64,000 nt of DNA from an uncultured Clostridia bacterium (GTDB lineage Bacteria > Bacillota > Clostridia > TANB77 > CAG-508): the NCBI GenBank assembly GCA_947627105.1, contig CANQUT010000001.1:5980-69979 (forward strand). The letters run 5' to 3'. Of the stretch, positions 2,588 to 23,781 are shown one piece after another (position 1 is the stretch's first letter; each line of letters starts with the position of its first letter). The notes beneath the pieces are model-generated. The model was not told where the DNA came from. It ran no database searches and saw only the letters and a program-made list of their open reading frames with translations. The translations under genes were made by a program, and so were the position numbers.

Positions 2588-2616
2588 TTGAAAAATAAGC
2601 TAAAAATGCTAAAATA
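2588..2616 (+). promoter_or_regulatory. Putative sigma-A promoter of A1-B1 operon (TTGAAA-17-AAAATA, weak -10)
   Basis: Same -35 context (cattgaaaaat) as the A2 promoter; identical RBS block TTTTAGGAGGTTAC before both A genes. Confidence 0.35.
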
Positions 2617-2659
2617 TATTATAGAGTAATTATATTTTTAAATATTTTAGGAGGTTACT

Positions 2660-5600
2660 ATGAAATTAAAACAAAAGATAATTACAGCTTTCACAACAAC
2701 AATTTTGCTAGGAAGTTATTTATTGCCAGTTGGAAACTTAGCAATAGCAACAGCTACCGCTGAACTTGAAAGCCAAACATCAAAAACTAATAATCCAAAT
2801 GTAGAATTTAATACTTACCTTGAAGGAAATACACATGAAAACACTTATAACCTTACAGAAGGTGGAAAGTTATATATAGAACTTAAGGTAAAAGAAAACG
2901 GCTATTTAAAAAATGGAATAGTCGAATTTAGCAATTGTAATTATAATTTTAATAGTAACGAAATAAATTCGGAATATATTCAAAAAATAGAAAACAATGC
3001 TATATATTTAAAACAAATTAGTAATGAAGACAGTATAAGAATAGAGCTACCAATAAGTTTTAAAAAGGAAGAAGCTATTAATATAGAAGAATTTAATAAA
3101 GAATCTAAAGCAAAATTAAAAGGTAGTTATATAAATATAGAAGGAAAAGAAATATTAATAGAAAAAGAAATAACAAATAAACTAAAATGGGAAGCAGAAG
3201 CAGAAGCCAAAGTAAATGCAGAAATAACAAAATACATACCATATAAATTAGGAGAAGAATATGGATTATTATTACAAACAAAAATAAACTCTGGAATTAA
3301 TGAAAATATATTACCAATTGCAAGTACTTCTTTAGAAGTATCAGTACCTGTAATAAATAATAAAAAAGCAGACGTAGTAAAAGTAATAGCAAATAAAACA
3401 ATAGCAACTAATGGAGAAGAAAGCGGACTTAACTTTACATCTGAAAACTATGAATATAATGAGAATGAAAATAAAGTAAAAATAAATGTAAACAATAAAG
3501 TAAATACACAAGGAAACATGGCATGGAAAAATGGAGAAGATGAATATTTAATAACTTGTATTTATAAAGAAAAAGAAATATATGACTATGTAAAAGGACA
3601 GCTAGAAAAAGCAAATTCTACAAAAATAACAGAAGAACAAATAGCAAACGGAGATAATAATATTAATGCAATAAATATGCCAACACAAGTAAATGGAATA
3701 ATTACAGTTTATGGAATAGAACAAAAACAAATACAAGTAAATTCAAGTTTTTCAAGTATTATACAAGAGGAAAAAGGAGAATTATCTGATTCTACAGTAA
3801 AAACAATAAATAATATTAGTAAAGGCTATATATATGCAAATTATGCAAAAGAAGAAAATGAAAAACAAGTAGAAGAAAAAGAGCAAACTATATATGAATT
3901 AACCTATAATGCACAAATATATAGTACAGATATACTAAAAGAAATTAAATTTATAACAGAAGAAGAAAAAATATTTGCAGAAAATACTGAATATGAAATA
4001 GGAAAAAACATTATAACAAAAGAAGTAAAAATTAATGAAGCAATATTTAAAAAAATATTAGGAGAAGAAGGAAATCTACAAGTTTTAGACAAAAGTAATA
4101 ATGTACTAGGAGAAATTAATTCTTTAAGTCAAAAAGATGATCAAGGAAACTATATTTTAAATATAGAAGAAAAAAATATAAATGAGGTAATAGTTAAAGC
4201 TTCTAATCCTATTACAGAAGGAAGCTTAGAAGTAAAAGTAGAAAAAGCATTCGTAAAAAACCAAAGTTTTTCACAAGAGCAAATGAAAACTTTTACTAAA
4301 ATATTAATAACATCAAACATAGAAACAAATACAAACAATAAAAATTATAATATGGAAATAACATTACAAGAACCAGTAAGCAAGGCAGAAATAAAAGTAG
4401 AAGAGGAAAAACAAACACTATCTACTGTAGTAGTAAATAAAGATGTTAATATAAATGTAGTATTAGATACATCAAGTGTTCAAAACGCATTATATAAAAA
4501 CCCAGTTATAAAAATAGTAATGCCAAGTGAAATAAAAAAGGTAGATTTAAAAGATGCTAACCTTTTATTAGACGATGAATTAAAAATAGAGAATAAAAAA
4601 GTAACAACTGAAAATGGAAAACAAATTATTAATATTACATTAAAGGGAACACAAACTGAATATGAAAACTATTCAGATATAGAGCAGAATAATGTAATAA
4701 CAAAAGGAGCAAATATAATACTTAAAGCAGATCTTACATTAGACATGTTAGCATCAAGCCAAACAGAAAAAATATATATGTATTATACAAATGAAAATAC
4801 TAATCTTTATGAAAATGTAAATAATGAAGATTCAAATAAAATATATGGAATTGCAACAACAGACATAGATATTTCAGCACCAACAGGAGTAATATTAGCA
4901 AGTGGAATATCAAATTATTCATCAAAAGCACAAGAAATTATATCTATATCAGACATAAATGCTACAATAGAAACTTATGTAGAAAAAAGAATTGCTACTA
5001 TTTATGGAAAAGTAATTAATAATCATAAAAATGAAATTACAGATGTTGTTATTTTGGGAAGAATTCCAGCAAAAAATAATATTAAAATAGATGAAGAAGA
5101 TGAATTAGGCTCAAACTTTAGTACTTATTTAAATAGTCCTATCGTAGTATCTGGAATCAATAAAGAAAATTATGAAATTTATTATTCAGATAAAGCTAAT
5201 GCAACAAAAAATTTGGAAGACAATAGCAATGGATGGAAAGAAGAATCAAATACATCTTCAAAATCATATTTAATTGTTATAAAAAATTATAATATGCAAA
5301 AAGGTAAAGAAATAGATTTTGAATATAATGTAGAAATTCCAGAAAAATTATCATATAACAACAATAGTTATGGAGTGTATAAAGTATATTATAATAATGT
5401 TTCAGAAATTGGTACAATTGCTGAAACAAAAACATCTCCTATCATAAATATTTCAACAGGAGATGGGCCAAAATTAGATATTAAATTATCATCTATGTCA
5501 GATACAGTACGAGAAGGACAAATTGTTAAAATCATAGCAACAATTAAAAATGTTGGAGAAATGGCAGCTGAAAATGCAAAATTAATAATAGATGCTCCAG

Positions 5601-7831
5601 ATGGAACATCTCATATACAAATGAATGCAAATAATGCAAGTTATGTAGAAAGTAAAGAAAAGAAAAAAGAAATCTCTCTTGGAACTATTAATCCAGGTCA
5701 AACTATTGTAAAAGAATATGAGTTAAAAATTGAAAAAGGGGTAAAATCTCAAACTATTCATGATGATTCTACAGGAAAAGATATTACAACACAAATTAAT
5801 GAATACCCAGGAGACAAAGATTTGCAAAACATTGTTAAAATATCTTCAAGTAATATAACAAACGAAATTGAATCAGATCCATATATTTTACATGTTAAAG
5901 AGGGAGATATAAGCATTATAGTAAAAGAACTTTTAACAAAGGGAAATGTATTAAAAAAAGGAGATAATCTTAAATATGAAGTAAATGTAAGCAATATTTC
6001 ATATACTAAAGATGCGGAAAACTTAACTTTAAATGTAAGATTGCCAGAAGGTATAAAAATAAACGATATATATTATCAAAAAGAAGGATCAGGAGAAAAA
6101 GTAAAAGATAATATTACAATTAATGGCAATACTGCTACTATAAATATAGGAACATTAAAAAGTATAAATAAATATTTAAGCAATCTTGGCGAAATAACTG
6201 AAGGTACAAAAATTGATAATATTTGTACAATGGCGTATGTATATATTGAATGTACTGTTGAAAGTTTCCAAGGAGAGCAAAACTTTGCAATTGAAGCTGT
6301 AGCAGATGAGATATTAACACATTATTCTAATATACAAAATATAAAAGCAGAAGAAGTTAAATTAACAATAGAGCAAGATGAGCTAAACCAAAAATATATA
6401 AAAGAAGGATCAGAATACATAACACATTTTAAAGTAAAAAATATTGGAGAAATAGTTTCTACTAAGAATGAAATAAACATGGTACTTCCAGAAGGACTAA
6501 GTTTTGTAAAAGTACAATATAAATATGGAGATCAAGAAGTAGAAAAACAAATATCAAAAGAAGACTCTTTAAATGTTAGTATTCATGAATTAGAAGCAGG
6601 TCAAACAATAGATATTTATGTTACACTAAAAGCTAAATTACTTTCAAATACAAATAGTAAAGAAGTAATTACTGTAGCTACATTAAAGGCAGATGGATTT
6701 GAAAAAATAGAATCAAACAGTCAAACAGCAATTATAGAATATGATGAAACTGTACATAACAGTAGTGAAAATGGAGGAGCAATTCAAAATAGTTATAAAA
6801 TAACAGGTATGGCATGGTTAGATAAAGATCAAGATGGTAAAAGAGCAAGCGATGAACAAGTTTTATCAGGTATTCAAGTTATTCTTTTAAACAAAAAAGA
6901 TAACACAATTGTTAAAACACAAGATACAGGAGAAAATGTTAGAACTATAACAAAAGATGATGGAACCTATGAATTTGTAAATATTCCTAAAGGAGAATAT
7001 TTAGTATTATTCTTATATGATACAAAATTATATGGTTTAACATCTTACAAAGCAAGTGGAGTATCAGAATCAATAAATTCAGATGCAGCTAGTATAAATG
7101 TTATTCTAAATGGAGAAGAAATAGTAGCAGGAATAACAGATACTATAGAGATTAAAAATTCAAATATAATGAATATTGATATAGGTTTATACTCTTATCA
7201 AAAATTTGACCTAAAACTTGATAAATACATATCTAAAATTACTAGAACTACTCCGACATCAGGAACAACTACAACAACTTATACACCAGAAAAAGGCAAA
7301 GTAGCAAAATCAGAAATATTATCAAAAAATCTTGGAGAAAGCAATGTTATTATTGAGTATAAAATTGTTGTAACAAATGAAGGTACGGTTAGTGGTTATG
7401 TTAAAAAGATTGTAGATTATTTGCCAAAGAATGTAAGATTTAGTACAACATTAAATAAAGATTGGTATTTATCAGAAAAAGGTAATATATATAATGCAAG
7501 TCTAGAAAATGAAGAAATAAAACCTGGAGAATCTAAGGAAGTAACATTAGTTGTTACAGCAGTAATAACTAATAGTAACTTAGGAATTTTAACAAATAAT
7601 GCTGAAATTTATGAAAGCTATAATAAGCAAGGTCTACCAGATATTGACTCAAAATCAGGAAACAATATGGCAAATGAAGACGATATATCAAATGCAGATT
7701 TAGTATTATCTCTTACAACTGGTAGGGTAGCTACATATATGATATTATTAATAGGAATTATTGTTTTAATAGCATTTGGTGCATTCTTAATAAATAGATT
7801 TATATTAACAGAAAAAGAAGAAGAATGGTAA
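2660..7831 (+). CDS. Giant secreted surface protein A1 (1723 aa): signal peptide, SdrD-B/CnaB-like fold, DUF11-type repeats, C-terminal TM anchor
   Basis: N-terminal signal peptide; WLDKDQDGKRASDE...DGTYEFVNIPKGEYLV (SdrD B-like); DUF11-like block NAEIYESYNKQGLPDIDS; C-terminal DISNADLVLSLTTG + hydrophobic helix + charged tail; paralog of 13357-18318. Confidence 0.85.
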   Translation: MKLKQKIITAFTTTILLGSYLLPVGNLAIATATAELESQTSKTNNPNVEFNTYLEGNTHENTYNLTEGGKLYIELKVKENGYLKNGIVEFSNCNYNFNSNEINSEYIQKIENNAIYLKQISNEDSIRIELPISFKKEEAINIEEFNKESKAKLKGSYINIEGKEILIEKEITNKLKWEAEAEAKVNAEITKYIPYKLGEEYGLLLQTKINSGINENILPIASTSLEVSVPVINNKKADVVKVIANKTIATNGEESGLNFTSENYEYNENENKVKINVNNKVNTQGNMAWKNGEDEYLITCIYKEKEIYDYVKGQLEKANSTKITEEQIANGDNNINAINMPTQVNGIITVYGIEQKQIQVNSSFSSIIQEEKGELSDSTVKTINNISKGYIYANYAKEENEKQVEEKEQTIYELTYNAQIYSTDILKEIKFITEEEKIFAENTEYEIGKNIITKEVKINEAIFKKILGEEGNLQVLDKSNNVLGEINSLSQKDDQGNYILNIEEKNINEVIVKASNPITEGSLEVKVEKAFVKNQSFSQEQMKTFTKILITSNIETNTNNKNYNMEITLQEPVSKAEIKVEEEKQTLSTVVVNKDVNINVVLDTSSVQNALYKNPVIKIVMPSEIKKVDLKDANLLLDDELKIENKKVTTENGKQIINITLKGTQTEYENYSDIEQNNVITKGANIILKADLTLDMLASSQTEKIYMYYTNENTNLYENVNNEDSNKIYGIATTDIDISAPTGVILASGISNYSSKAQEIISISDINATIETYVEKRIATIYGKVINNHKNEITDVVILGRIPAKNNIKIDEEDELGSNFSTYLNSPIVVSGINKENYEIYYSDKANATKNLEDNSNGWKEESNTSSKSYLIVIKNYNMQKGKEIDFEYNVEIPEKLSYNNNSYGVYKVYYNNVSEIGTIAETKTSPIINISTGDGPKLDIKLSSMSDTVREGQIVKIIATIKNVGEMAAENAKLIIDAPDGTSHIQMNANNASYVESKEKKKEISLGTINPGQTIVKEYELKIEKGVKSQTIHDDSTGKDITTQINEYPGDKDLQNIVKISSSNITNEIESDPYILHVKEGDISIIVKELLTKGNVLKKGDNLKYEVNVSNISYTKDAENLTLNVRLPEGIKINDIYYQKEGSGEKVKDNITINGNTATINIGTLKSINKYLSNLGEITEGTKIDNICTMAYVYIECTVESFQGEQNFAIEAVADEILTHYSNIQNIKAEEVKLTIEQDELNQKYIKEGSEYITHFKVKNIGEIVSTKNEINMVLPEGLSFVKVQYKYGDQEVEKQISKEDSLNVSIHELEAGQTIDIYVTLKAKLLSNTNSKEVITVATLKADGFEKIESNSQTAIIEYDETVHNSSENGGAIQNSYKITGMAWLDKDQDGKRASDEQVLSGIQVILLNKKDNTIVKTQDTGENVRTITKDDGTYEFVNIPKGEYLVLFLYDTKLYGLTSYKASGVSESINSDAASINVILNGEEIVAGITDTIEIKNSNIMNIDIGLYSYQKFDLKLDKYISKITRTTPTSGTTTTTYTPEKGKVAKSEILSKNLGESNVIIEYKIVVTNEGTVSGYVKKIVDYLPKNVRFSTTLNKDWYLSEKGNIYNASLENEEIKPGESKEVTLVVTAVITNSNLGILTNNAEIYESYNKQGLPDIDSKSGNNMANEDDISNADLVLSLTTGRVATYMILLIGIIVLIAFGAFLINRFILTEKEEEW

Positions 7832-7847
7832 AAGAAGGAGGTAAAAT

Positions 7848-10800
7848 ATGAAGATTAAAAAATATAAAAATTTTGGAATTTTGTTATTTATTTTAATAAT
7901 TACAATAGCAATAATACCTAATTTTATTATTACATTACTTGATAATATAATTGAAAAAGATTCTCCTTCTGCCTATAGTTTTTCACAAGGTGATATATAT
8001 TCATTAGGAATTGTATTTGGAGAACAGAGACAAAAAATAGAATGGACAGGATCACAATTTGGACCAGAAGATAGTGTAACAGGTTACGGAGTTGTAGATG
8101 GAAAAACAGTACCAAAACAAGATCCATATATCTTATACTGTACAGAATATGGTACGGGTTTTTGGACAGGCAATGGAACAAGACATTATGCAACTTCACT
8201 TGAAGGATCTTATGGTACAATAGAACATTATTATAAATCGAATCCACATGAAAGTATAACATACACGGGTAAATGGCATTGTACAGGGATTCATATTGAA
8301 CAAAAATATGATGGAGAACTAAGTTTTCCATGGCTTGTTAAAGAAAGTGATATAAACTTAATTAAAGCAGGTGGGGATGAAAATATATCATTAGCTTATG
8401 CACTAACTTCTAAAGAAATAGATAAATATAGTGAAGAAAAGCAAATGGCAATTTGGGCATTAAAAGGTCAAAGAGGACAAACAAGTTTATCAGAAGAAGC
8501 TAAACAATATGCTAAATATTATGAAAAAACACAAGTAGATAGAGGAAGTACAGAACTTCCAGATTTAGATATTAAAGGATCAGCAGAAGATTTAAAAGTA
8601 TTAGCACACTATGATGAACAAAAAGGTGGAACATTAACAATTGGTCCAATTAATTTAACATATATTAATCAAAATAATGATAGTATTGCTTTTGAAGGAA
8701 TTTCTGCAATGTATTTTAGAGGCTATAATAAAAAAGGTGAAATGGTTAAAGGAAAAACATCTGCAGATAGAATAAAAGTTGAATATGTTATTGACTCTAA
8801 TGGAAAATATGTACCAAAATTCTTTAATCCAAAAAAAGAAGAATGTTATGTAGATCACAATAAACAAGCTTACCCAGATGGCCAAGGAGATGGAGAATTT
8901 TACTTAGTAATAAAAGATCCAAACATTGGAAAGACTTCTAAAGATGAAGATTTTATAGCTGAGTTAGACTTAAGAATTACTTTTAAATGGATGACAATAT
9001 TTGATGCCCAAGTTAGTAATTTTAACTCTTATGAATATCAAGTAAATTGGTATGAACATTTATACCCAATAACACATTCAGATCCAGATTATTCATATAA
9101 TTTAGAAACTAAAAGATGGGAGGTAAGTGGATATCATTCTGACTCAAGTTGTTTAAAACGTGTTAAATTAGAGGAGGCTAGTCTTCAAAAAGTACTTTGC
9201 TATTATGGCGGAGGAAGAGAACTATTTACTACAACATTTACTATAGGAAATGTTGGAGAAAGAATAAATATTACTATGGACTTAGGAGGAAATGTTTGGG
9301 AAGATGGTTTATCTACTAAAGAATCAAAAGCAGATGGCTTAAATAGTACTCCAGCAGAAAATGGAAATAATATTGATAAAAATCTTAGCAATATAAAAGT
9401 TAGTTTATGGAAAGTTCAAAAAGCAGGAAGTATACCAGGAGAATTTATCACATATACATATACTAATGAAAATGGAAATTATATGTTTACAGGTTTAAAT
9501 CCATTACTTAAATATTATGTTTCATTTGAATATGATGGACAAAAATACTTATCTACTGAATATTTAAATGCAGGTTCATCAAGATATGATTCAGTAAATG
9601 ATATGATAAATGCTGGTGAATATAATGGATCAGATATATGGCATGCTACTTCAAAAGGAACTGAGACTTCAAGTGAAAGAGAAGCTTATAACCAAAGATT
9701 TTCAGAGATAGGTTCAGCACCTAAAAATTATCCATCAGATGATTCTTTATCAAGCGGTGCATTAGTAGAAAGCTATAACGAAGCATTTTCAATGTATGAC
9801 TTAATGGGCTTTAAATTAGATGAAAATGGTAAATATTATATAGATTCAAATCTTGCTTTAATAGATGGATACTATACAGTTGAAAACGGAAATATTGTAG
9901 TAACAAATAAATATCAAAAAGGTAGAATTTCACAAGAAATTGAAAAATATATTAAACAATATTCAGATAGTGAAAAGTCTAGAATGAGATCTGAACTAGA
10001 AGCTTTGATTGCACAGCAAAAAGCAGACTGGAATAAAAAAGTAGATGAAGCTAAAGTAACTCAAGAAAATAATATTACAAATGACTTAAAAGGAAATTCA
10101 GATTATACAGATAGTTATGGAAATCTAACACAAAAAGGATTAGATAAAGTAAAAGAAGAAGTTCAAAAAATAGAAAATCAAAGATCTAGTGGATTAAGTA
10201 AAATAGAAAAACAAAAAGAAGTTAGTTTAGAATATATTGAAAAATTAGAAATAGTTCCAGACTATAACACAATGATAAAAGATGTTTATAAAACTATTGC
10301 AGGCTCAGATACTAATATGTGGAGAAAATTACAATTTATTGAAGACAGCAAAATAAGTTCTTATACACAAAATAATAGTGAGAAATTAGACTTATACCCA
10401 GTATATGATGACTTTTATCTAAACTATTTAGTAGATAATGATGCTGGTACAGGAAAGAAAAAATATGACACAATTGAAGACCAAATGAAAGATTCTTATG
10501 ATCAAACAATTATTACAGTAGATGGTATAGACTATAAACCAATTTACGAAGGACAATTCTTTGTAAATTTAGGACTATGGAAAAGACAGCAAAATAATAT
10601 GTCTATAAGAAAAGATATATATCGTGCAGCTACTAGAATAAACGGTAAAACAGAAGTATATAAATATAATAAACGTGAAGATAATAAGGATTATTGGGAA
10701 ATTCAGCTAAGAATGAGTGATTACGAATATTATTATGGAGGACGTTATAATAGAGAGTTATATAAATCAGATTATGAATATGATACAAAATCTACAAACC

Positions 10801-13148: not shown

Positions 13149-13153
13149 AGTAA

Positions 13154-13199
13154 AAAAGCTTTTATAGAATTAATTATTCTAATAAAAGCTTTTTTTTTA
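13154..13199 (+). terminator. Rho-independent terminator after B1
   Basis: AAAAGCTTTTAT...ATAAAAGCTTTT stem followed by T9. Confidence 0.7.
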
Positions 13200-13298
13200 T
13201 GCTATTTTTTATTTAATAATGCAAAATACAAAATTACCTACGGAAACCCCTAAATTAACCCAAAATTCACATAATATGGAAAAAATAATGGAAATACA

Positions 13299-13327
13299 TT
13301 GAAAAATTGGTAAGAATGTCGTATAAT
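13299..13327 (+). promoter_or_regulatory. Sigma-A promoter of A2-B2 operon (TTGAAA-17-TATAAT)
   Basis: Consensus -35/-10 hexamers with 17-nt spacer, 30 nt upstream of RBS. Confidence 0.6.
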
Positions 13328-13356
13328 AGAATAAGAGTTTATTTTAGGAGGTTACA

Positions 13357-16300
13357 ATGAAAAAAATAAATCAAAAAATTATAGCCTTAATTTTAACTAT
13401 ATTACTAATTGGAACAAACCTAATTCCTCTAGGGAACCAAGTAATTGCGGCGAATTTATTAGAACAAAATAATAAAACAAGTAATAATAATGTAACATTT
13501 GATAGTTATTTAGAAGGAAATGTACATAATAAAATTTATAATGTAGAAGAGGAAGCTAAACTATACATAAAACTAAATGTATATAATACAGGGTATCTAA
13601 AAAATTCAACAATTACTATTTCAAATAATGCTAATTATGAAATAGATACAGCTAATTTAAAAAATGAAAACATATTATCTATGACTTCAAACCAAATAAC
13701 TATAAAACAAATTAATAGTAATGAAGAAGTAACTATAGAATTACCAATTAAAATAAAAACAGCAAATAGTGTAGAAAAAGATTTCGCACAAAAAGTTTCA
13801 GAAGTTTCATTAAATGCAATATATGTAGATGATAATGGAATAGAAAAAAACATAACAAAAACGATAAATAATCAAGTTATATGGAAAGAGCAAATGGAAT
13901 TAAATTTAAACTATGAAGTAACAAAATATATTCCATATAAACAAGAACAAGAATATGGTGTTTTATTGCAAACTGTAATAACAAGCAGTGTAAAAGACCA
14001 TGTTTTACCAATTTCAAAAACAGAATTAGAAATGTATGCACCACAAATAGAAAATGCAAAACCAACATCAGTAAATGTAATAGCAAATAAAACATTAAAT
14101 ACAAATTCAGATGAAAGTGGAATTAATTTTGAAACCTCAAATTATCAATATGATGAATCTACAGGCAAACTTACTATTACAGTAAGCAACATAGAAAACG
14201 AAAATAAATTAATTTCTTTAAATCCAAATGGTGTAGATGAATATATTGTAAACTTTATTTATAAAGGAAAAGAACTTTATGAAAAAATGTTAGAAAAAAC
14301 ATTTCAAACATCAATGAATGTAATAGGAAAAGTAACTATTGAAGATAGTGAACAAACATTAATAAAAAAAGATATTCAAGTTGAATATAATGAAAAAGAA
14401 GTAAAAGGTGTTTTAACAGATATTACACCTATAATTAAAACATCTATTAGCAAAGGAAACATATATGCTAATTATGATAAAAATGAAAATAAAAAAGAAA
14501 CAAATTATGAATACAGCTATATAGCACAAATAAATGAATTAAACCTTACAGAACAAGTACAAATGCAAACAGCAAAAGACTATTATTTAGACAATAACTC
14601 AAATGAATTTCCATTAGAAAATAATAGTTATATAAAACAAATAAAAATAGAAAAAAACAATTTTGAAAAAATACTTTCAGAAGAAGGAACAATAGAAATT
14701 AACAAAATAGATGGAACAAATATAGGAACAATAAATAAAGATACAAAACTAGAAAATAATAACTACATTTTAGATATTTCAGAAGCTAAAATGCAAGAAA
14801 TACAAATAAAAACAAGTAAGCCAGTATCAGTAGGAAATTTAGAAATAAAAATATTAAAAGCAATAATAGACGAGCAAACATATTCTAAAGAAGAAATGAA
14901 ACAATTTACCAAAATAAAATTAGGCATAATTAATAAAAGCGTAGAAAAAAATTTAGAATTAAGTTCTACTATTTCTTTAATAGAACCAGTAAGTACAGCA
15001 GAAATTACTATATCAGAAGAAAGTAAAAATTTATCAACAGTAGTAAAAAATGAAAATGTGGAAATTAAAGTAGTTCTAAATACATCTAATGTAGAATATG
15101 CTTTATATAAAAATCCAGTATTAGAAATAGAATTACCAAGAGAAATAGAAAAAGTTGATATTAAAGATATTAAAATTTTATTAGATGATGAGTTAAAAAT
15201 AGTAGAAAAACAAGTTATTACAAAAAATAAAAAACAAGTTATTCAAATTACTTTACAAGGAACACAAACAAATTATACAGAAACTACAAAAAGCGTAGAA
15301 GAAAATGTAATAGCTAAAGGTGCAAATATAATTATTAACGCAGATTTTACTTTAAATAAATTTGCTGTAAGTAAAGAAGATAAAATAACAATGTATTATA
15401 CAAACGAAAATACAAACTTATATGAAACTCCTACGAAAGAAGATATAGTAAGAGGAGTAGTATCTACTAATGTTAACATAGTAGCACCAAATGGAGTTTC
15501 AGCAATAAATAAAATAACTAACTATAATGCTAAAAACTCAGAATTAATTTCCTTAAACAGTGAAAAACAAGAAGCAATTATACCAGCAAAAGCAGAAAAG
15601 AAGACATTAACTATAGAAGGAATAATTACAAATAATTATGAAAATTCTATTGAAAATGTATCTATTTTAGGAAGATTGCCATTTAAAAACAATAAAGCTG
15701 TAGATGGAGAAACTTTAGGAAGTACATTTACGATGCCAATGGTACAAAAGATAGAATTTAGTGGAATAAGCAAAGATCAAGTAAAAGTATATTATAGCCA
15801 AAATGAAGAAGCAACAAAAGAATTAGAAAATACTTCAAACGAATGGAAAGAACAAATAGATGACTTATCTACTATAAAAAGCTACCTTATTGTTATATCA
15901 GGAAAAGTAGAAAAACAAACACAAATTAAATTTAATTATAAAGTAGAATTACCAGAAAACATAGGAACAGATAACAGTTCGTATGAAATGTACAAGGTAT
16001 ATTATAACAACAAAACACAAGAAGCAACTATAGGAGAAACAAAAATCTCAGGTATATTAGGTATATTAACAGAAAAAGCACCAGAATTAGAAATAACTTT
16101 AAACTCTAATGTCGAAGCAAATGGAATAGTTACAGAAGGACAAATTGTAAAATTCTTTGTAGAAGTAAAAAATATAGGAAAAGAAGAAATAAAAGATGCA
16201 GTATTAAATATTCCTGTTCCAAATGGAACTATTTATACTACATATAATTCTTCAGAGCAATTATATGTAGACTCTAATAAGCAAGCAATACAAATTTCAC

Positions 16301-18318
16301 TTGGAAATATAGGTGTTAATGGAGTAGCAAAAGCAAGTTATGATCTTAAAATGGGACAAGCAACATTAGGAAATATATCTAATAAAGTAAATGTAACAGC
16401 ACAAAACATAGAAGAAGCTGTTAACTCAAATGAATATATACTTACAAAAGTAGAAGGAAAATTAATATTAACATTATCTGCACCAAGAGATCCTAATGCT
16501 ACACTTAATAAAGGAAATATATTATATGCTACATTAATTTTAGAATCAAAAGAACAATTAAATAATGTAGTAGTAAATATAAGTATTCCAAATGGTATAA
16601 AAATAAATGAAACAAGCTATATAGACAAAGATGGAAACACACAAGACTATGTTCAAGTTCAAAATAATACTGTAATAGCTAATATTCCAAAATTAGAAGC
16701 AAACTATTTACAAAGTATTAAATTAAATCTTGAAATAGATAGCTTTACAGGTGATTTTAACTTTATTGCAAAAGCATCTTCTAATGAAACTAAAGAACAA
16801 ATATCTAACTTAATAAAATATCATGTTGGGGCACCAGAATTTGAAATTACACAAGCTTCATCTTCAGAAAAATATTTAAAAGAAGCAAAAGAAATTATAT
16901 ATGAATTTACTATGAAAAATGTAGGAGATTCAGATGCAAATGATGCCATATTTGAAGATGTGTTACCAGAAGGCCTAACATTTAAAAAATTAGAATATAC
17001 AAGTAAAGGAAAAATGCAAGAAATAAATTCTACATTAGATAATATAGCAAAAGTAAGATGGACCAAATTTGAACAAGGTGCTACGGAAACAGTAAAAATT
17101 ACAGCACAAGCAGACTTATTAGATGCAGAAAAGAAAGATAAAACGGTTAACAACATAGGTACAATTACAGCACAAGGAATAGAAAGTAAAAAATCAAATA
17201 ATATTACTACTATTATAGAATATAATCCAGAATTATATAAAGATAATAATCAAAACAATAATGAAATTACAGATAATAGTGCACTATACAAAATTACAGG
17301 TATAGCATGGTTAGATGAGAATAAAAATGGCAAAAGAGATGAAACAGAAAATTTATTATCAGGAATAGAAGTAAAATTATTTAAAAGAGAAAATAGTGAA
17401 CTTGTAAAAGATATACAAGATGGTACAGAAAAAACAACCAAAACTTTAGCAGACGGAAGTTATGAATTTACTAATTTAGAAAAAGGAAACTATGTAATAG
17501 TTTTCTGCTATGATGCTGGTAAATATAATGTTACAGATTATCAAAAAGAAAATATTAGTACAAGCTATAATTCAGATGCAGTTTCAATGCTAGTTACTTT
17601 AAATGGAAAGCAATTCCATGCAGGAGTAACAAATACTATAAATGTAACAAATGAAAATGTTAGAGACATAGATATTGGTTTATATGTAGCAAACAAATTT
17701 GACTTAAAAATAGACAAATATATTAATAAAATTACAGTAACTAATCAAACATCTGGAACAAAAACATATAACGTAAATAATTCAAAATTAGAAAAAGTAG
17801 AAATTTTTAAAAAAGATGTTAACAAATCAAGTATTGTTATTGAATATAAAATAGTTGTAACAAACGAAGGTGGACTTGAAGGCTATGCTAAAAAAATAGT
17901 TGACTATTTACCAAAAAATACTAAATTTAGTTCAGAATTAAACAAAGATTGGTATATTTCAGATAACAATAATGCAGTATATAACACAAGTTTAGAAAAT
18001 ACTATTTTAAAACCTGGAGAAAGTAAAGAAATAGCACTTACTTTAAGTGCACAAATTACAAATAGTAATATAGGAACAATTATTAATAATAATGCAGAAA
18101 TTTATGAAGCTTATAATGAATACGGAGAGCCAGATATAGATTCTATAGAAGCTAACATGATAGAAATAGAAGATGATATATCAAAAGCAGACATTATACT
18201 TTCTACAGCAACTGGTACAATAGTTATTTATTCAGGCTTAGTATTAGCAATATTATTTATTTTAGTAATTGGAACATTAGTAATAAGAAGAACTTTTAAA
18301 GAAGAAAATATATTATAA
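13357..18318 (+). CDS. Giant secreted surface protein A2 (1653 aa), paralog of A1
   Basis: Collinear similarity to A1 from signal peptide through SdrD-B-like (WLDENKNGKRDETE...DGSYEFTNLEKGNYVIVF) and DUF11-like region; C-terminal DISKADIILSTATG + TM + RRTFKEE. Confidence 0.85.
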   Translation: MKKINQKIIALILTILLIGTNLIPLGNQVIAANLLEQNNKTSNNNVTFDSYLEGNVHNKIYNVEEEAKLYIKLNVYNTGYLKNSTITISNNANYEIDTANLKNENILSMTSNQITIKQINSNEEVTIELPIKIKTANSVEKDFAQKVSEVSLNAIYVDDNGIEKNITKTINNQVIWKEQMELNLNYEVTKYIPYKQEQEYGVLLQTVITSSVKDHVLPISKTELEMYAPQIENAKPTSVNVIANKTLNTNSDESGINFETSNYQYDESTGKLTITVSNIENENKLISLNPNGVDEYIVNFIYKGKELYEKMLEKTFQTSMNVIGKVTIEDSEQTLIKKDIQVEYNEKEVKGVLTDITPIIKTSISKGNIYANYDKNENKKETNYEYSYIAQINELNLTEQVQMQTAKDYYLDNNSNEFPLENNSYIKQIKIEKNNFEKILSEEGTIEINKIDGTNIGTINKDTKLENNNYILDISEAKMQEIQIKTSKPVSVGNLEIKILKAIIDEQTYSKEEMKQFTKIKLGIINKSVEKNLELSSTISLIEPVSTAEITISEESKNLSTVVKNENVEIKVVLNTSNVEYALYKNPVLEIELPREIEKVDIKDIKILLDDELKIVEKQVITKNKKQVIQITLQGTQTNYTETTKSVEENVIAKGANIIINADFTLNKFAVSKEDKITMYYTNENTNLYETPTKEDIVRGVVSTNVNIVAPNGVSAINKITNYNAKNSELISLNSEKQEAIIPAKAEKKTLTIEGIITNNYENSIENVSILGRLPFKNNKAVDGETLGSTFTMPMVQKIEFSGISKDQVKVYYSQNEEATKELENTSNEWKEQIDDLSTIKSYLIVISGKVEKQTQIKFNYKVELPENIGTDNSSYEMYKVYYNNKTQEATIGETKISGILGILTEKAPELEITLNSNVEANGIVTEGQIVKFFVEVKNIGKEEIKDAVLNIPVPNGTIYTTYNSSEQLYVDSNKQAIQISLGNIGVNGVAKASYDLKMGQATLGNISNKVNVTAQNIEEAVNSNEYILTKVEGKLILTLSAPRDPNATLNKGNILYATLILESKEQLNNVVVNISIPNGIKINETSYIDKDGNTQDYVQVQNNTVIANIPKLEANYLQSIKLNLEIDSFTGDFNFIAKASSNETKEQISNLIKYHVGAPEFEITQASSSEKYLKEAKEIIYEFTMKNVGDSDANDAIFEDVLPEGLTFKKLEYTSKGKMQEINSTLDNIAKVRWTKFEQGATETVKITAQADLLDAEKKDKTVNNIGTITAQGIESKKSNNITTIIEYNPELYKDNNQNNNEITDNSALYKITGIAWLDENKNGKRDETENLLSGIEVKLFKRENSELVKDIQDGTEKTTKTLADGSYEFTNLEKGNYVIVFCYDAGKYNVTDYQKENISTSYNSDAVSMLVTLNGKQFHAGVTNTINVTNENVRDIDIGLYVANKFDLKIDKYINKITVTNQTSGTKTYNVNNSKLEKVEIFKKDVNKSSIVIEYKIVVTNEGGLEGYAKKIVDYLPKNTKFSSELNKDWYISDNNNAVYNTSLENTILKPGESKEIALTLSAQITNSNIGTIINNNAEIYEAYNEYGEPDIDSIEANMIEIEDDISKADIILSTATGTIVIYSGLVLAILFILVIGTLVIRRTFKEENIL

Positions 18319-18332
18319 GTGGGAGGCAAAGA

Positions 18333-21300
18333 ATGAATAGTAAAAATAAAATAGCACTTCTTGTAACAGGAATACTAGCAGTATTTATTACATTAGTAAT
18401 AATGTTTGCTACTATAGTTCAAGTAAATGGCAGAAAAATTCAAGAAGTAGCTAAACTTACAAAAGAAGCACTTACAATAAATAGTTCACAAGCTAATGGA
18501 AGTATAAAAACACCTGGAGCACATAACGGAAGTAGTAGTCTTTGGGTTGAAGCATTACCTAGTAATATAAATAAAGTATTTATTCCAACAGTTGGAAACG
18601 CACAACTATATTGTATAGAAAAAGGTGTTAGTTTAAAATCTGGATTAGAAAGAGTTTCAACAATTAAAGCATTAAAAGGAACATCTGGAAGTGTTAGTTC
18701 TTCTAGTTGTATGGCTTCTCTTCCAGAAAAACGTTATTCAAATACTTATTATGAATGTGTTAATAATCATACAGAAATGGTTCCATCTGGAGCATATATA
18801 GTTACAGCACCAGATAATTTCATAGCACCTTATGATGGAGTATATTCATATGGTTCATCTAGTAGCTTCAAAAAAGGTGAAAATATTAGCCAAGAAGTAA
18901 GACAAGTAGCAATTTGGTTAAATCCTGAAATGAATAAAGGAGAAAACTTTTATGAAAGTGGAGCTACATTTACATATATAGATATGGCAGAGCAATTAAA
19001 GGATGAAGCAATGGATTATAGAGATTATGAAAATAACTTAAAAAATAATGTAAATAATCCAATAAAAGATGCAACTTCTGACAAAATAAAAGTAAGTGTA
19101 GACCAAAAAGAACAAGTATTAATCTTAGGACCATATAAAATTAATTATGTAGAAGGAAACTCTGCATCAGCAAAATTTGCCGGAATTTCTAATATGGTTA
19201 TAAGAGGTTACAATGATAAGGCAAGAAAAGCATTTATTAAAAACTTAGAAATTGTAAGCTACATTCAAAATGGTAAAGAACATAAATTAGATTTCTTTAA
19301 TCCATTAAAAGAAAATGGCTATGTAGATAAAACAGCAAACTCATACCCAGTTAGCATGCAAGAATTTTACATTAAAATAAAAAATCCAAATCAAGGTATT
19401 TCAAATGGTGAGAAAAAAGTAAAATATATTGATATAAATGTAGAATATTCTTACATGACTGTTTATGCAATTCAATGTAATTTAAAAGGACATCAATTAG
19501 TTGCAACACCTATTCAAACATCACATAGTAATAGCTATCATTATAAATATGGCTATTTAACTTCTTGTAATGTGGGTTATCGTTGGAATGTAACTGAAAA
19601 TCCTTTAAAACAACAAGATGTAATAGATGCATGGGGAGAAAGAAACTTATATAAATTAAATATTAATTTAAAGGGTAATGTAGACGATATTACTACAGAT
19701 ATAACTATGAAATTAGGAGGTTATACTTGGGAAGATATACCAGAAGGAAAAGAAAATTTATCAAATGGTATAAAAACAGATGAAGATATAATTATTCCTA
19801 ATGTAAAAGTAACATTATATGAATGCATAATGGATTCTAATGGAAATGTACAATATAAAAATGGAAAACCACAAGCAAATGTTGCAAACTTATTATCTGA
19901 AGTAGACAAAGGAGAATTATCAGGGGAAGAATTACAAAACAGAGTTAATCCAAAACTTACAAATGCAAATGGCTACTATCAGTTTGATGGTTTAGATGTA
20001 TTTAAAAAATATTATGTTACATTTGAATATAATGGACAAATTTATATGTCTACAGATTATTTGCAAATAGGAAGCGGAAGTCACCAAAATTCTGTACAAA
20101 GCATGGTAAATGCTAAACTTTATAATACAGATATATGGGCTATAACTTCAAAAACATCAGAAATCTCAAGTGTAAGAACAGAATATAATAACAAATTTGC
20201 AGAAATTGGTTCATCACCAAAAGGTTATAGATCTAGTGATTCTTTAAAAAGTGGCAAACTAATAGAAGGCTATAATGAAACATTTTCTATAAATGATTTA
20301 TTAGGTTATGAATTACAAGAAAATGGTACATATAAATCAGTAGGACCAAGACTAATAGATGAGAAATATGTACTTGATGCAAATGGAAATGTAATAGAAG
20401 CACAATCTATTACAGAAGGCTTAATTAGCCAAAAAATTAAAGAATATATAACAAAAAATTATAAATACCCAGATAAAAATGCTTTAATTTCAATTTATCA
20501 AAATATTGTAAGGGAATATGCAAAAAATAGTAAAGATCAAGAAATTCTTTGGAAAAAATTACAATATATAGAAGACTGTAAAATTGAAGCATATACAGCA
20601 TCACCTTATGAAAAAGGAAATATAGATTTATACCCAGTATATAATAAATTTGTAGTAGATACACAAAGTGCTGTAATACCAGGAATTGGCACAATGCCAC
20701 CAATATATAATGGACAATATCATATAAATTCAGGACTATGGAGAAGACAATTAAATAATGTAGCATTAAGAAAAGATATTTATCGTGCAGCAACAAGAAT
20801 AAATGGAAAAACAGAAGTATATAAATATGATAAACGTTCTTCAAATGAAGATTACTGGAGAATTGAATTAAGAATGCAAGATTATCAAAACTATTATGGT
20901 TCTTACTATAATAGAGAAATATATCCATCAGATTATAATTATAAAGCATTAGCTACAAATTTATATGGTGAAGAATTAGAACTATATGTTACATATAAAA
21001 TCTCTATTAGAAATATATCACAAGGTATTTTAAATGAAATTACTGAAGTTGTGGATTATTATGATAAAGATTACACATATATGCCAGGTTTATCTTGGGT
21101 AATGTACAATGAAAACGGTATAGATGAAGAATTATCTATTCCAGAAAAATCTTATTATGATATAATGAACAACTTAAATTTAAATGGACTAAAATATGCA
21201 AAAAATATTAATAGCACTTATTCAAGTGTGCAAAATGGAAATGGTACTTATTGTGGTGCAAGCATTTACCAAGATGCATCAAAATCAGACTTAGAAAAAC

Positions 21301-23414
21301 AATACAACTCTGTATATGTACATGGACTAAACAATAAAAAATTACAAACAGGTGAAGAAGCATACATTTATTTAACATTTAAAGTAAATTCAGATGATAA
21401 AGGTCCAGTTATATTAGATAATGATGACAGTTTAAAACAAAACTATGTTGAAATTAATGGTTATAAAAGCTATTATAAAAACGGAACTAAACTACCAAAT
21501 AACATAACAATTAATGGTAATAATACAGTAGCAGGAATTATAGATAATAACTCTACACCTGGTAACTTATGCTTAAATGATTTACAAGGAGAAAAATACG
21601 AGAAAAACTTTGAAGATGATACAGATAGAGCAAAAAGTATAAAAGTTGCTTTAGACATAAATGCAATTAGAGAAATAAATGGTACAGTTTGGGAAGATGA
21701 AAGAACACAAACTGTAAATGGTGCAATAATAGGAGACGGCGTAAGACAAACAGGTGAAATAGGAATTAAAGGTATAACTGTAGAACTAGTAGAAAAACTA
21801 GCAAATGGAAGCGAATATGTATGGCAAGTAGCTGAAACTGATGAAAATGGTTTATATAAATTTACAGGCTTCATACCAGGAAATTATATTGTTAGGTTTA
21901 AATATGGTAATGATGTAAAAACTGTTTTAACAGAGGCAAATGGCGGAGAAAATGCAGTATCATATAATGGTCAGGACTTTAAATCAACAGTGTATAGTAA
22001 AGACTTAAAAAATAATATAACAGTTTCAAAATATACAGACGAATATTATAATATCTTAGAATCAGATAAACTAAGTGTTAATAAAAATGCAAATGTATCA
22101 GATGCAAAAGATATATGGGAAAGTAAAACTATAAACACTGGTAGAACAACAAATAATCAAACTAAATATCAAAATGAAAGCTATCAAGGAAGAACTAATG
22201 TTAATAATTATTCTTCAGGAGCTATAGGAAATTCTAAAGCACAAATATTAGCATCACCATATGCACAAAACATTAATAATAGCATGATACAAGAACTAAT
22301 AGCAAATACTAATATGGTAGCAGAAACTGCTATTATTAAAACAGAAGTAGAATATGATAGAACACTTTCAAATGGTAACAATACAGAAAGTAATGGAGAA
22401 CAATATTTATATAATAATGATAAAAACGGAGAATATGTTTTAAACAATATAGACTTCGGACTTACAGAAAGACCAAAAGCTCAAATAGAACTTGATAAAA
22501 AAGTAACTAATGTAAAATTAACTTTAGGAGATGGTCAAATAGTATTTGATACAAATAAATCTGTAGACAATTTATCTTGGCTTAAAGGTAATTCATATAA
22601 TTTATCTAACCAAATGAAAAACAATAAATATGAAGAATATTATAGCCAAAGTAAAACAAATAAATCATTTAATCGTTATTCATATAAAACACAAATTAAC
22701 AACTTAATTAATTCACTTTATAAAAACGGAAGAAATGGATTAATACAAGCAATAATAGATTCAGAGCTTGCACATGGAGCAACTATTCAAGTTTCTTATG
22801 AATTGATGGTTAAAAACGTAAGTGAAACAGATTATTCTAATAAAGATTTCTATTATTCAGCAACTGGTGCATCAGATAATTACAAAGTAACAACATCTGC
22901 TAATATGGTAATAGACTATGTAGCAAATAACTTACAATATAGCGCATTAAATAATGCAGGATGGACACTTGTAAAATCTCCTAATAGTACAATTGCAGAT
23001 GGCTTAGTTGATAATAATATAAAAGATAAAGCAAACTCATATAATAACATAATAGCAACTACACAATTAAGCAAAAATCTAAAACCAGGTGAAAATATAA
23101 CTAAAGATTTATTATTATCACAAATAATTTATAACGGATCTGAATCAGATAATAAATCTTACGAAAATATTTCTGAAATTGTTCAAACAACTAATACAGT
23201 TGGTAGAAGAATGGCATATTCAATTGCAGGTAACCAAGATCCAACAGCAGAACCTACTGAAGTAGACAGTAGCAAAGCAGAAACAATAGTTGTAGTTCCA
23301 CCATTTGGTTTAACACAAATTTTATATATAGGAATCGCTTTAGCAGTAGTTACTATATTAGCAGTAGGAATCGTATTCATTAAGAAGGGGACAGGTCCCA
23401 ATGCTCGTTTTTAA
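18333..23414 (+). CDS. Giant thioester-domain adhesin B2 (1693 aa), paralog of B1
   Basis: GGGAGG RBS 14 nt after A2 stop; QLYCIEKG Cys motif and EVRQVAIWLNP Gln motif; many blocks identical to B1 (RKDIYRAATRINGKTEVYKY, EEAYIYLTFKVN); C-terminal VVVPPFG + TM; last ~9 codons and the stop lie inside repeat element R1. Confidence 0.85.
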   Translation: MNSKNKIALLVTGILAVFITLVIMFATIVQVNGRKIQEVAKLTKEALTINSSQANGSIKTPGAHNGSSSLWVEALPSNINKVFIPTVGNAQLYCIEKGVSLKSGLERVSTIKALKGTSGSVSSSSCMASLPEKRYSNTYYECVNNHTEMVPSGAYIVTAPDNFIAPYDGVYSYGSSSSFKKGENISQEVRQVAIWLNPEMNKGENFYESGATFTYIDMAEQLKDEAMDYRDYENNLKNNVNNPIKDATSDKIKVSVDQKEQVLILGPYKINYVEGNSASAKFAGISNMVIRGYNDKARKAFIKNLEIVSYIQNGKEHKLDFFNPLKENGYVDKTANSYPVSMQEFYIKIKNPNQGISNGEKKVKYIDINVEYSYMTVYAIQCNLKGHQLVATPIQTSHSNSYHYKYGYLTSCNVGYRWNVTENPLKQQDVIDAWGERNLYKLNINLKGNVDDITTDITMKLGGYTWEDIPEGKENLSNGIKTDEDIIIPNVKVTLYECIMDSNGNVQYKNGKPQANVANLLSEVDKGELSGEELQNRVNPKLTNANGYYQFDGLDVFKKYYVTFEYNGQIYMSTDYLQIGSGSHQNSVQSMVNAKLYNTDIWAITSKTSEISSVRTEYNNKFAEIGSSPKGYRSSDSLKSGKLIEGYNETFSINDLLGYELQENGTYKSVGPRLIDEKYVLDANGNVIEAQSITEGLISQKIKEYITKNYKYPDKNALISIYQNIVREYAKNSKDQEILWKKLQYIEDCKIEAYTASPYEKGNIDLYPVYNKFVVDTQSAVIPGIGTMPPIYNGQYHINSGLWRRQLNNVALRKDIYRAATRINGKTEVYKYDKRSSNEDYWRIELRMQDYQNYYGSYYNREIYPSDYNYKALATNLYGEELELYVTYKISIRNISQGILNEITEVVDYYDKDYTYMPGLSWVMYNENGIDEELSIPEKSYYDIMNNLNLNGLKYAKNINSTYSSVQNGNGTYCGASIYQDASKSDLEKQYNSVYVHGLNNKKLQTGEEAYIYLTFKVNSDDKGPVILDNDDSLKQNYVEINGYKSYYKNGTKLPNNITINGNNTVAGIIDNNSTPGNLCLNDLQGEKYEKNFEDDTDRAKSIKVALDINAIREINGTVWEDERTQTVNGAIIGDGVRQTGEIGIKGITVELVEKLANGSEYVWQVAETDENGLYKFTGFIPGNYIVRFKYGNDVKTVLTEANGGENAVSYNGQDFKSTVYSKDLKNNITVSKYTDEYYNILESDKLSVNKNANVSDAKDIWESKTINTGRTTNNQTKYQNESYQGRTNVNNYSSGAIGNSKAQILASPYAQNINNSMIQELIANTNMVAETAIIKTEVEYDRTLSNGNNTESNGEQYLYNNDKNGEYVLNNIDFGLTERPKAQIELDKKVTNVKLTLGDGQIVFDTNKSVDNLSWLKGNSYNLSNQMKNNKYEEYYSQSKTNKSFNRYSYKTQINNLINSLYKNGRNGLIQAIIDSELAHGATIQVSYELMVKNVSETDYSNKDFYYSATGASDNYKVTTSANMVIDYVANNLQYSALNNAGWTLVKSPNSTIADGLVDNNIKDKANSYNNIIATTQLSKNLKPGENITKDLLLSQIIYNGSESDNKSYENISEIVQTTNTVGRRMAYSIAGNQDPTAEPTEVDSSKAETIVVVPPFGLTQILYIGIALAVVTILAVGIVFIKKGTGPNARF

Positions 23415-23431
23415 GCACTTAGGGACAGGTC
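23387..23431 (+). repeat. GGGACAGGTC double-box repeat element, copy R1 (type I)
   Basis: GGGGACAGGTCCC-22 nt-TTAGGGACAGGTC; near-identical to copy at 60784-60828. Confidence 0.8.
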
Positions 23432-23514
23432 ATAGTAATAAAACCAAGAGGTAATCCTAAAATAAACTAAAAGCAAAAGAGGGTCTCCTAGAATAGGAAC
23501 CTGAAAGCTAAAAA

Positions 23515-23578
23515 AATTCCAGTGAGAAATTGAAGACCAATTTTTTAAAAAGCTTCGAAAAATCACTGGAATTTTTAT
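23515..23578 (+). terminator. Long hairpin (11-bp stem AATTCCAGTGA/TCACTGGAATT) + T-run, likely terminator of A2-B2 operon
   Basis: Perfect 11-bp inverted repeat with ~37-nt loop followed by TTTTTAT. Confidence 0.45.
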
Positions 23579-23781
23579 ATGTAAAATATCGATAAAACCT
23601 TGTATTTTTGAACATTTTACGATAAAATAATAAACAGAAAAAAGTTTAAAAAGTAAAATAAACACAAAAGATGGCAAAATAAGAAGAAAACTTTTTTAAT
23701 TTGTGTATATAAAATGACAAACATTTTAAACAGCTTGTACTAAAATAAAAAGCAAATTAAAAAAGTAGAGGTGGTCACAAA

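Follow-up and report, generated by a model that had tools for sequence, protein, structure and literature searches.

A duplicated pair of giant fibrillar surface proteins, one with a thioester-type head, at a conserved chromosomal site of uncultured gut Clostridia

The window analyzed here is a 64,000-nucleotide stretch of contig CANQUT010000001.1 (assembly GCA_947627105.1) from an uncultured Clostridia bacterium of CAG-508, one of the major families in the uncultured order TANB77 (PMC11680825). Its G+C content is ∼27.6%, and it reads as a Clostridia chromosome. Near its start lie four large genes in two tandem units, A1-B1 and A2-B2, each of which encodes two surface proteins of ∼1700 aa. We read A and B as paired fibrillar surface proteins that are anchored at their C-termini and belong to the core of the lineage, with B as a covalent adhesin; to this reading we assign a probability of roughly 0.6.

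Two tandem A-B units at a conserved site

The original prediction, made from the letters of the window, placed here two tandem A-B units with 14-16 nt between A and B, and all four open reading frames (ORFs) lie, on the forward strand, where they had been placed (Table 1). The A-to-B gaps measure 16 nt in A1-B1 and 14 nt in A2-B2, and each contains a Shine-Dalgarno sequence of its own. A promoter for each unit, an identical ribosome-binding site (RBS) block, and a terminator between the units had also been proposed, and the sites were located by consensus match, alignment, and folding. Both terminators are missed by a simple terminator scan because their stems are AT-rich, and folding was used instead. 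No convincing operator common to both upstream regions was found beyond the RBS block. We note an element, AC-T-CG-AAAC, that is loosely alike at 2530-2560 (cttccgtaaacg) and 13235-13255 (cctacggaaac), ∼40-60 nt upstream of the -35 hexamer; the two copies resemble each other too weakly for an operator call.

Table 1. Features of the A-B locus, with positions in the window (res, residues; TM, transmembrane segment; E, E value; dG and z, folding free energy and its z score)
Feature	Position	Strand	Description
Promoter-like site, unit 1	2588-2615	+	TTGAAA-16-TAAAAT with TG; sigma-70-like, consensus match only
RBS block, unit 1	2643-2658	+	TATTTTAGGAGGTTAC, 16 nt; same letters as block before A2
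A1	2660-7831	+	1723 aa; all-beta stalk protein; signal peptide res 1-∼30 (...LAIA|TA)
A1 N-terminal module, res 28-945	2741-5494	+	Conserved chain of immunoglobulin-like (Ig-like) beta-sandwich domains; no Pfam family
A1 CLIPPER/DUF11 domain, res 1243-1354	6386-6721	+	PF01345, E 3e-11; top scorer among mid repeats ∼940-1360
A1 SdrD_B domain, res 1381-1487	6800-7120	+	PF17210, E 4.7e-11
A1 terminal CLIPPER/DUF11 domain, res 1495-1690	7142-7729	+	26.8 bits vs cut-off 24.6
A1 tail, res 1683-1723	7706-7828	+	LSLTTG + hydrophobic helix + charged tail; sorting-signal-like; T1687, G1688 nearly invariant
B1	7848-13148	+	1766 aa; fibrillar protein with thioester-type head
B1 N-terminal hydrophobic helix, res 1-34	7848-7949	+	Long signal peptide or signal anchor; conserved xSA|Y ∼12 residues downstream
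B1 thioester-type head, res ∼56-470	8013-9257	+	Class II-like, enlarged beta-sandwich insert res ∼240-440
B1 Cys98 codon	8139-8141	+	Candidate bond-forming Cys, motif LYC98TE
B1 Gln199 codon	8442-8444	+	TQXXphiW-like motif KQ199MAIW
B1 Gln447 codon	9186-9188	+	Predicted bond partner, motif LQ447KVL
B1 first SdrD_B/transthyretin-like domain, res ∼480-585	9285-9602	+	Pfam
B1 charged insertion, res ∼700-800	9945-10247	+	Clade-specific; absent from B2 and most orthologs
B1 second SdrD_B domain, res 1230-1321	11535-11810	+	Pfam E 1.5e-12
B1 tail, res 1726-1766	13023-13145	+	VIPPFG + hydrophobic helix + KTKVLRRK; sorting-signal-like, Phe for Thr
Terminator hairpin + U-run, unit 1	13152-13195	+	Folding: dG -16.4, z -4.3
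Promoter-like site, unit 2	13299-13327	+	TTGAAA-17-TATAAT; 11/12 matches; sigma-70-like, consensus match only
RBS block, unit 2	13340-13355	+	TATTTTAGGAGGTTAC, 16 nt; same letters as block before A1
A2	13357-18318	+	1653 aa; A1 paralog, like architecture; tail LSTATG + TM + RR
B2	18333-23414	+	1693 aa; B1 paralog with different thioester-type head; tail VVPPFG + TM + KK
B2 Cys94 codon	18612-18614	+	Candidate bond-forming Cys, motif LYC94IE
B2 Gln191 codon	18903-18905	+	TQXXphiW-like motif RQ191VAIW
B2 Gln428 codon	19614-19616	+	Predicted bond partner, motif Q428DVI
Terminator hairpin + U5, unit 2	23515-23573	+	Folding: dG -18.7, z -5.1

At E ≤ 0.001, A1 has 404 homologs, the best 120 of which are 1639-1748 aa long and 40-58% identical to it. 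When a profile of the A N-terminus was searched exhaustively, 1131 representatives matched at E ≤ 1e-30. Scanning one genome per species gave 71 loci, all in metagenome-assembled genomes (MAGs) of uncultured gut Clostridia, Clostridium sp. CAG:508, CAG:567, and CAG:273 among them; the hosts include human, mouse, rabbit, and roe deer. In every related locus with room for both genes, B comes next after A and has the same orientation. A and B therefore always co-occur, which decisively disposes of the possibility, raised with the original prediction, that they never do so in other genomes. The usual gene order is mreBCD-PBP2-minC, three small minus-strand ORFs, A, B, spoIIE, and a WG-repeat protein. 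The locus is a lineage-wide syntenic chromosomal feature, not an accessory adhesin island; a mobile-element or phage origin was considered and rejected, the flanks being housekeeping genes in conserved synteny.

The two units of the window have diverged, as had been proposed. A1 and A2 share 41% identity along their whole length. Between B1 and B2, identity is 57% across the C-terminal ∼1000 aa and 36% in mid-protein, with the first ∼250 aa unaligned. The best DNA blocks shared by A1-B1 and A2-B2, of 89-300 nt, are just 74-79% identical, and the duplication is therefore old. The "long identical blocks" that the original prediction ascribed to the paralogs were an overstatement, since identical protein runs are also limited to ∼10-20 aa. 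Within the window's subclade, the second-unit A proteins are 71-84% identical to A2 and the first-unit A proteins 45-58% identical to A1; the duplication is therefore older than these species, and unit 1 is the faster evolving. An A-B-A-B arrangement occurs in ∼15 loci, with within-locus paralog identities from 38% to 67%, so doubling has been recurrent or is of varied age.

The head of B and the stalks of both proteins

Thioester domains (TEDs) carry three motifs: the bond-forming Cys in [YFL]C-phi-zeta, a helix motif TQXXphiW that does not form the bond, and phi-Q-zeta-phi-phi (PMC6194298). All three are found in both B1 and B2, with the Thr of TQXXphiW replaced by Lys in B1 and by Arg in B2. 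In an alignment of 13 heads that are 22-52% identical to B1, Cys98, Gln199, and Gln447 are invariant (13/13) and stand among just 11 invariant columns; the Trp of the helix motif is present in 11 heads and is Tyr in the other two. Across 57 locus orthologs, the three residues are kept in 54, 52, and 40 sequences, respectively, in a fast and noisy alignment, because of which the Gln447 count is conservative. Cys is a rare residue here, at 1-9 per protein. The thioester motifs noticed in B at the outset are thus real and conserved. The pairing then suggested, of the Cys with a TQXA-type Gln, has to be revised: on the motifs of PMC6194298 the likely partner is Gln447, and the predicted bonds are Cys98-Gln447 in B1 and Cys94-Gln428 in B2.

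An AlphaFold2 (AF2) model of the B1 head (pLDDT 73, with disordered stretches) places Cys98 at the end of a strand, Gln199 in a helix bundle (helix 196-205), and Gln447 on a long hairpin, with a ∼200-residue beta-sandwich at 240-440. The TED fold combines a beta-barrel with a helix bundle, to which Class II adds an inserted beta-sandwich and a slipknot hairpin. As modeled, the B1 head would have the topology of Class II, its insert being larger. It is these motifs and a weak fold match, without support from hidden Markov models (HMMs), that point to a thioester-type head.

A few heads seem to depart from the pattern. The B ortholog of locus L063 (15005-20095) has NEELWAL in place of KQxAIW, and the first-unit B of L006 and of L041 fits the Cys/Gln spacing poorly; these heads may have lost the helix-motif Gln or may simply be misaligned. 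In the most distant loci (L070, L072, L073, L075, and L076; ∼15000-24300 in each), the B homolog has 2750-3190 aa, nearly double the usual length, and its head carries a YVQTAWW-type motif nearer the classical TQXAxW. L073 and L076 also have a second B-like gene, of ∼3100 aa, upstream of A.

A secretion signal, repeated Ig-like stalk domains, and a C-terminal anchor are present in both A and B. A1 and A2 are signal-peptide proteins built of Ig-like stalk domains alone. No recognizable head was found in A, where only stalk-type folds were seen and the ∼900-residue N-terminus has no Pfam match; the N-terminal domains resemble the major pilins BcpA, RrgB, CppA, and SpaA (solved chains of 350-604 residues). 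The CLIPPER/DUF11 model (PF01345) scores 44 bits in A1 and 51.6 bits in A2 against a gathering cut-off of 24.6, with no match in B, and SdrD_B (PF17210) scores 43-52 bits in all four proteins against a cut-off of 29.7. For most of B, neither Pfam nor NCBIfam gave a match when the whole proteins and nine sub-segments were scanned. Of the domains named in the original prediction, SdrD_B and DUF11 were therefore borne out by Pfam in A; TED/TQXA_dom was not matched, and neither was Cna_B, in A or in B. The charged insertion of B1 may, on a reading of its sequence, be a helix or coiled coil.

DUF11, recently renamed CLIPPER, is an isopeptide-forming stalk domain that resembles CnaA and occurs in fibrillar adhesins (PMC12617251). 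In the terminal CLIPPER domain of A1, Lys1522, Asp1586, and Asn1646 are invariant in 15 sequences and, by analogy with that work, would fit an isopeptide triad, for which we regard them as candidates.

Conservation is distributed differently along the two proteins. Across 70 orthologs, A is evenly conserved at its N-terminus (40-47%), most variable in the middle CLIPPER repeats (17-33%), and most conserved at its C-terminus (55-60%). Among the 57 B orthologs, identity to B1 is 11-20% in the head (residues 1-250) and 45-55% in the stalk (residues 900-1766). A variable B head on a conserved stalk, beside a conserved and headless A, suggests that B meets variable external ligands and that A has a conserved role, either structural or as a partner of B.

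Sorting-signal-like tails and neighboring genes

Each of A1, B1, A2, and B2 ends in a motif followed by ∼23 hydrophobic residues and then by a charged or basic tail; elsewhere in the window, such a tail is seen only in one unrelated minus-strand ORF, which lacks the motif. The hydrophobic helix that the original prediction recorded as a C-terminal transmembrane segment is present, but it is not a plain one: the tails are tripartite and sorting-signal-like, with SxxTG in A and PPFG in B. In 80 A sequences from related loci, the tail consensus is EDD-x-S-x-A-[DE]-x-x-x-S-x-x-T-G, with an almost invariant Thr-Gly. Most of 77 B tails read [IL]-L-P-P-F-G, some have IPPYG, IPPTG, or LPPTG, and the most distant have SPPTG or TPPTG. 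The window itself has Phe for Thr in B (IPPFG in B1, VPPFG in B2) and Thr-Gly without Pro in A (SLTTG in A1, STATG in A2), and LPXTG or (S/P)PXTG with a scissile Thr-Gly occurs in none of the four proteins. We know of no sortase that cleaves after Phe. The SrtB of C. difficile cleaves (S/P)PXTG signals between Thr and Gly; in vitro it did not cleave NVQTG, the closest motif without Pro that is known (PMC4155245).

No sortase or secretion gene was found within the 64-kb window (there is no TLxTC motif, and Pfam assigns the neighboring ORFs to housekeeping families), and on this scale the original prediction holds. At two distantly related loci, L063 (20315-21064) and L084 (10001-10750), a Pfam-confirmed sortase directly follows B, in the order A-B-sortase-mraZ-rsmH; B ends there in LPPTG and A in SVETG. 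The lack of a sortase is therefore a property of the window and need not hold for the system. The L063 sortase is recognized by the general sortase model and by no model for classes A-F, its best being class C at 64 bits against a cut-off of 160, and the pair may represent an unclassified sortase group. Its homologs, 51-60% identical, are abundant as single genes in housekeeping contexts on gut-MAG contigs of ∼30% GC.

These observations bear on the best-surviving alternative, which differs from our reading in the mode of anchoring only: A and B would be canonical substrates of a housekeeping sortase encoded elsewhere, which would cleave SxxTG and PPFG and link the proteins to peptidoglycan. 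The tripartite tails and their strongly conserved motifs favor it, as do the SPPTG, TPPTG, and LPPTG of basal relatives, which match the SrtB signal (PMC4155245), the A-B-sortase order at L063 and L084, where the A tail SVETG is of the window's type, and the abundance of related single-gene sortases. Against it, the residue whose carbonyl forms the acyl-enzyme is Phe or Tyr in most B proteins, including B1 and B2; A lacks the Pro of LPXTG, and the precedent of NVQTG is a negative one (PMC4155245); no sortase is found in the window or in ∼70 other loci, L063 and L084 excepted; and the sortase-bearing contigs of ∼30% GC could not be tied to genomes that carry A and B. We hold this alternative to be a serious but tentative one.

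The neighborhood of the locus offered several further observations. The three small minus-strand ORFs divergent from A1 lie at 2203-2364 (53 aa), 1744-2151 (135 aa), and 1521-1772 (83 aa). The 135-aa ORF is present between minC and A in nearly all related loci, at 37-79% identity, and the 53-aa ORF has a weak, sub-threshold match to YlbD_coat (E 3e-5); the three could be regulators or sporulation proteins tied to the A-B locus. In the window as in related loci, minC (840-1466) is followed by the small minus-strand ORFs and A-B, not by minD/minE. At locus L001 (MAG GCA_947628735.1), two ORFs of 608 and 1021 aa (15728-21125), with faint fn3 and DUF4992 matches only, stand between a single A-B pair and spoIIE, and it appears that other surface-protein genes can occupy the slot between B and spoIIE. 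Farther along the window, an amidohydrolase (Amidohydro_1) is split between overlapping plus-strand ORFs at 60978-61910 and 61855-62268, whose matches span positions 1-247 and 246-344 of the profile. The split reflects a frameshift, a decayed gene, or a fault in the assembly. A 411-aa plus-strand ORF at 28100-29335 has no Pfam or NCBIfam match. A 419-aa plus-strand ORF at 51525-52784 has far sub-threshold similarity to polyprenol-phosphate-mannose-dependent mannosyltransferases (MptB-like) and, judged from its sequence, is possibly an envelope glycosyltransferase.

The location of the locus raises a second alternative, in which A and B are structural parts of the envelope (a surface layer, cell-cell cohesion fibers, or a sporulation or division appendage) rather than adhesins for a host or substrate. 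The site beside mreBCD-PBP2-minC and spoIIE is fixed in nearly all loci, length is near-constant, A is conserved end to end in >1000 representatives, and a small upstream ORF has the weak YlbD_coat match; moreover, TED adhesins can target other bacteria, as is reported for pLS20 conjugation (PMC8092201). The hypervariable head of B, recurrently duplicated into divergent heads, fits variable external ligands better, however. By consensus match only, the promoters appear sigma-70-like and not sporulation-specific, and adjacency to housekeeping clusters is no evidence of a common function. We consider a primarily structural role unlikely.

A sortase-polymerized pilus with A as shaft and B as thioester tip adhesin, as in Cpa/FctA-type pili, is rejected as the principal explanation and in our estimate highly improbable. 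In its favor, the A N-terminal domains resemble major pilins, the A-B-linked sortase of L063 scores best against the class C model, and there is precedent for TEDs in tip adhesins (2xi9 Cpa). Against it, a YPKN-type pilin motif ([WYFIV]PK[NDTSH]) is absent from both A and B, each of which, at ∼1700 aa, is several-fold larger than the shaft pilins with solved structures; the L063 sortase falls far below the class C cut-off; and most loci have no sortase nearby.

Proposed role and comparison with known systems

Under our reading of A and B as anchored surface fibers with a covalent adhesin in B, both proteins would be exported by Sec, and each would form a rod ∼1650 residues long of CLIPPER/DUF11, SdrD_B, and unclassified CnaA/CnaB-like Ig-like domains, some of them probably holding intramolecular isopeptide bonds. 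By a rough estimate, such rods would be long enough to span the wall. The C-terminal motif, helix, and basic tail would anchor them, either by retention in the membrane or through a sortase encoded elsewhere that links them to peptidoglycan. At the distal N-terminus of B, covalent attachment would come about by reaction of a target amine with the divergent thioester domain of Class II type. Because the head is hypervariable both between species and between units, the two units probably bind different targets. A would most likely be a conserved structural or partner fiber that is co-produced with B; it is from the linkage of the genes that a two-component cooperation of A and B is suggested.

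Several results weigh against this reading. Pfam and NCBIfam thioester models match none of the 13 B heads, even at E ≤ 1; a B-head profile run against PDB sequences finds no solved TED, only a chance match; and a Foldseek search of the PDB with the B-head model gives nothing significant. The Thr after which sortases cleave is Phe in B1 and B2, and the 64-kb window has no sortase. In addition, adhesins are normally patchy in distribution and variable in their repeats, and fixed synteny with near-constant length is unusual for them. The proposal of an adhesin system in the original prediction is partly supported: in its fibrillar surface-protein types, in the thioester-type head of B, and in the co-occurrence of A and B.

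A bolder version would take the strongly conserved [IL]PPFG tails of B and the SxxTG tails of A as marks of a non-classical sorting route, with either a re-specified sortase or a sortase-independent membrane tether. An obligate A-B heteromeric surface fiber would then be a core trait of TANB77/CAG-508, in which A docks or presents the hypervariable covalent head of B to host mucus or partner microbes. We offer this as speculation and think it doubtful.

TANB77/CAG-508 is an uncultured, genome-reduced gut clade whose abundance has been linked to the response to cancer immunotherapy, and the sole conserved surface structure singled out in it so far is a Tad-type pilus (PMC11680825). Across the A/B-carrying lineage, 10-20 kb per genome is given to giant surface proteins at a conserved position, a large share of ∼1.7 Mb, which marks them as likely main organs of contact with the host or with partner microbes. 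The head of B keeps the residues that define the chemistry yet is invisible to Pfam and NCBIfam, and surveys therefore probably undercount covalent adhesins in uncultured Firmicutes. The change of Thr to Phe in an otherwise conserved sorting motif poses a clean question about sortase specificity or its loss.

The nearest relatives in kind are the Class II TIE proteins BaTIE, SaTIE, and EfmTIE86, to which B has no HMM-level similarity. B is 3-4 times longer than these, its head insert has ∼200 residues as opposed to ∼75, its stalk is built of SdrD_B and CLIPPER-like domains rather than CnaB or ester domains, its tail is PPFG rather than LPXTG, and, unlike in the TIE proteins, its gene always follows that of a conserved partner, A (PMC6194298). 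Class I adhesins (SfbI, Cpa, FNE, and CpTIE; 5a0l, 2xi9, 5dcq, and 5a0g) lack the inserted beta-sandwich in their domains, sequence identity is 10-14%, and they are accessory virulence or colonization factors, whereas A-B are syntenic core genes (PMC4450167). The Class II TED adhesin of pLS20, which is needed for conjugation, is reported to show that such proteins can target other bacterial cells rather than host tissue; it is plasmid-borne in a conjugation operon, whereas A-B is chromosomal, flanked by housekeeping genes, and has no transfer genes nearby (PMC8092201).

For the stalks, the closest comparison is with CLIPPER fibrillar adhesins (PMC12617251; 9ifr), from which A differs in having no adhesive head and in its first 900 residues, which belong to no Pfam family. 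The SdrD_B modules of A and B are like those of the S. aureus SdrD/Sdr family; unlike SdrD, A and B have no SD repeat region, DLL-type A region, or LPXTG. With the C. difficile SrtB substrates, the system shares the tripartite C-terminal signal, and basal B homologs end in SPPTG, TPPTG, or LPPTG; unlike those substrates, the B proteins of the window have PPFG and the A proteins SxxTG without Pro (PMC4155245). The known kind to which the system belongs is that of the TIE-type fibrillar adhesins, and what is new in it is an HMM-invisible head, a Thr-to-Phe sorting motif, and an obligate, conserved partner gene at a fixed chromosomal site.

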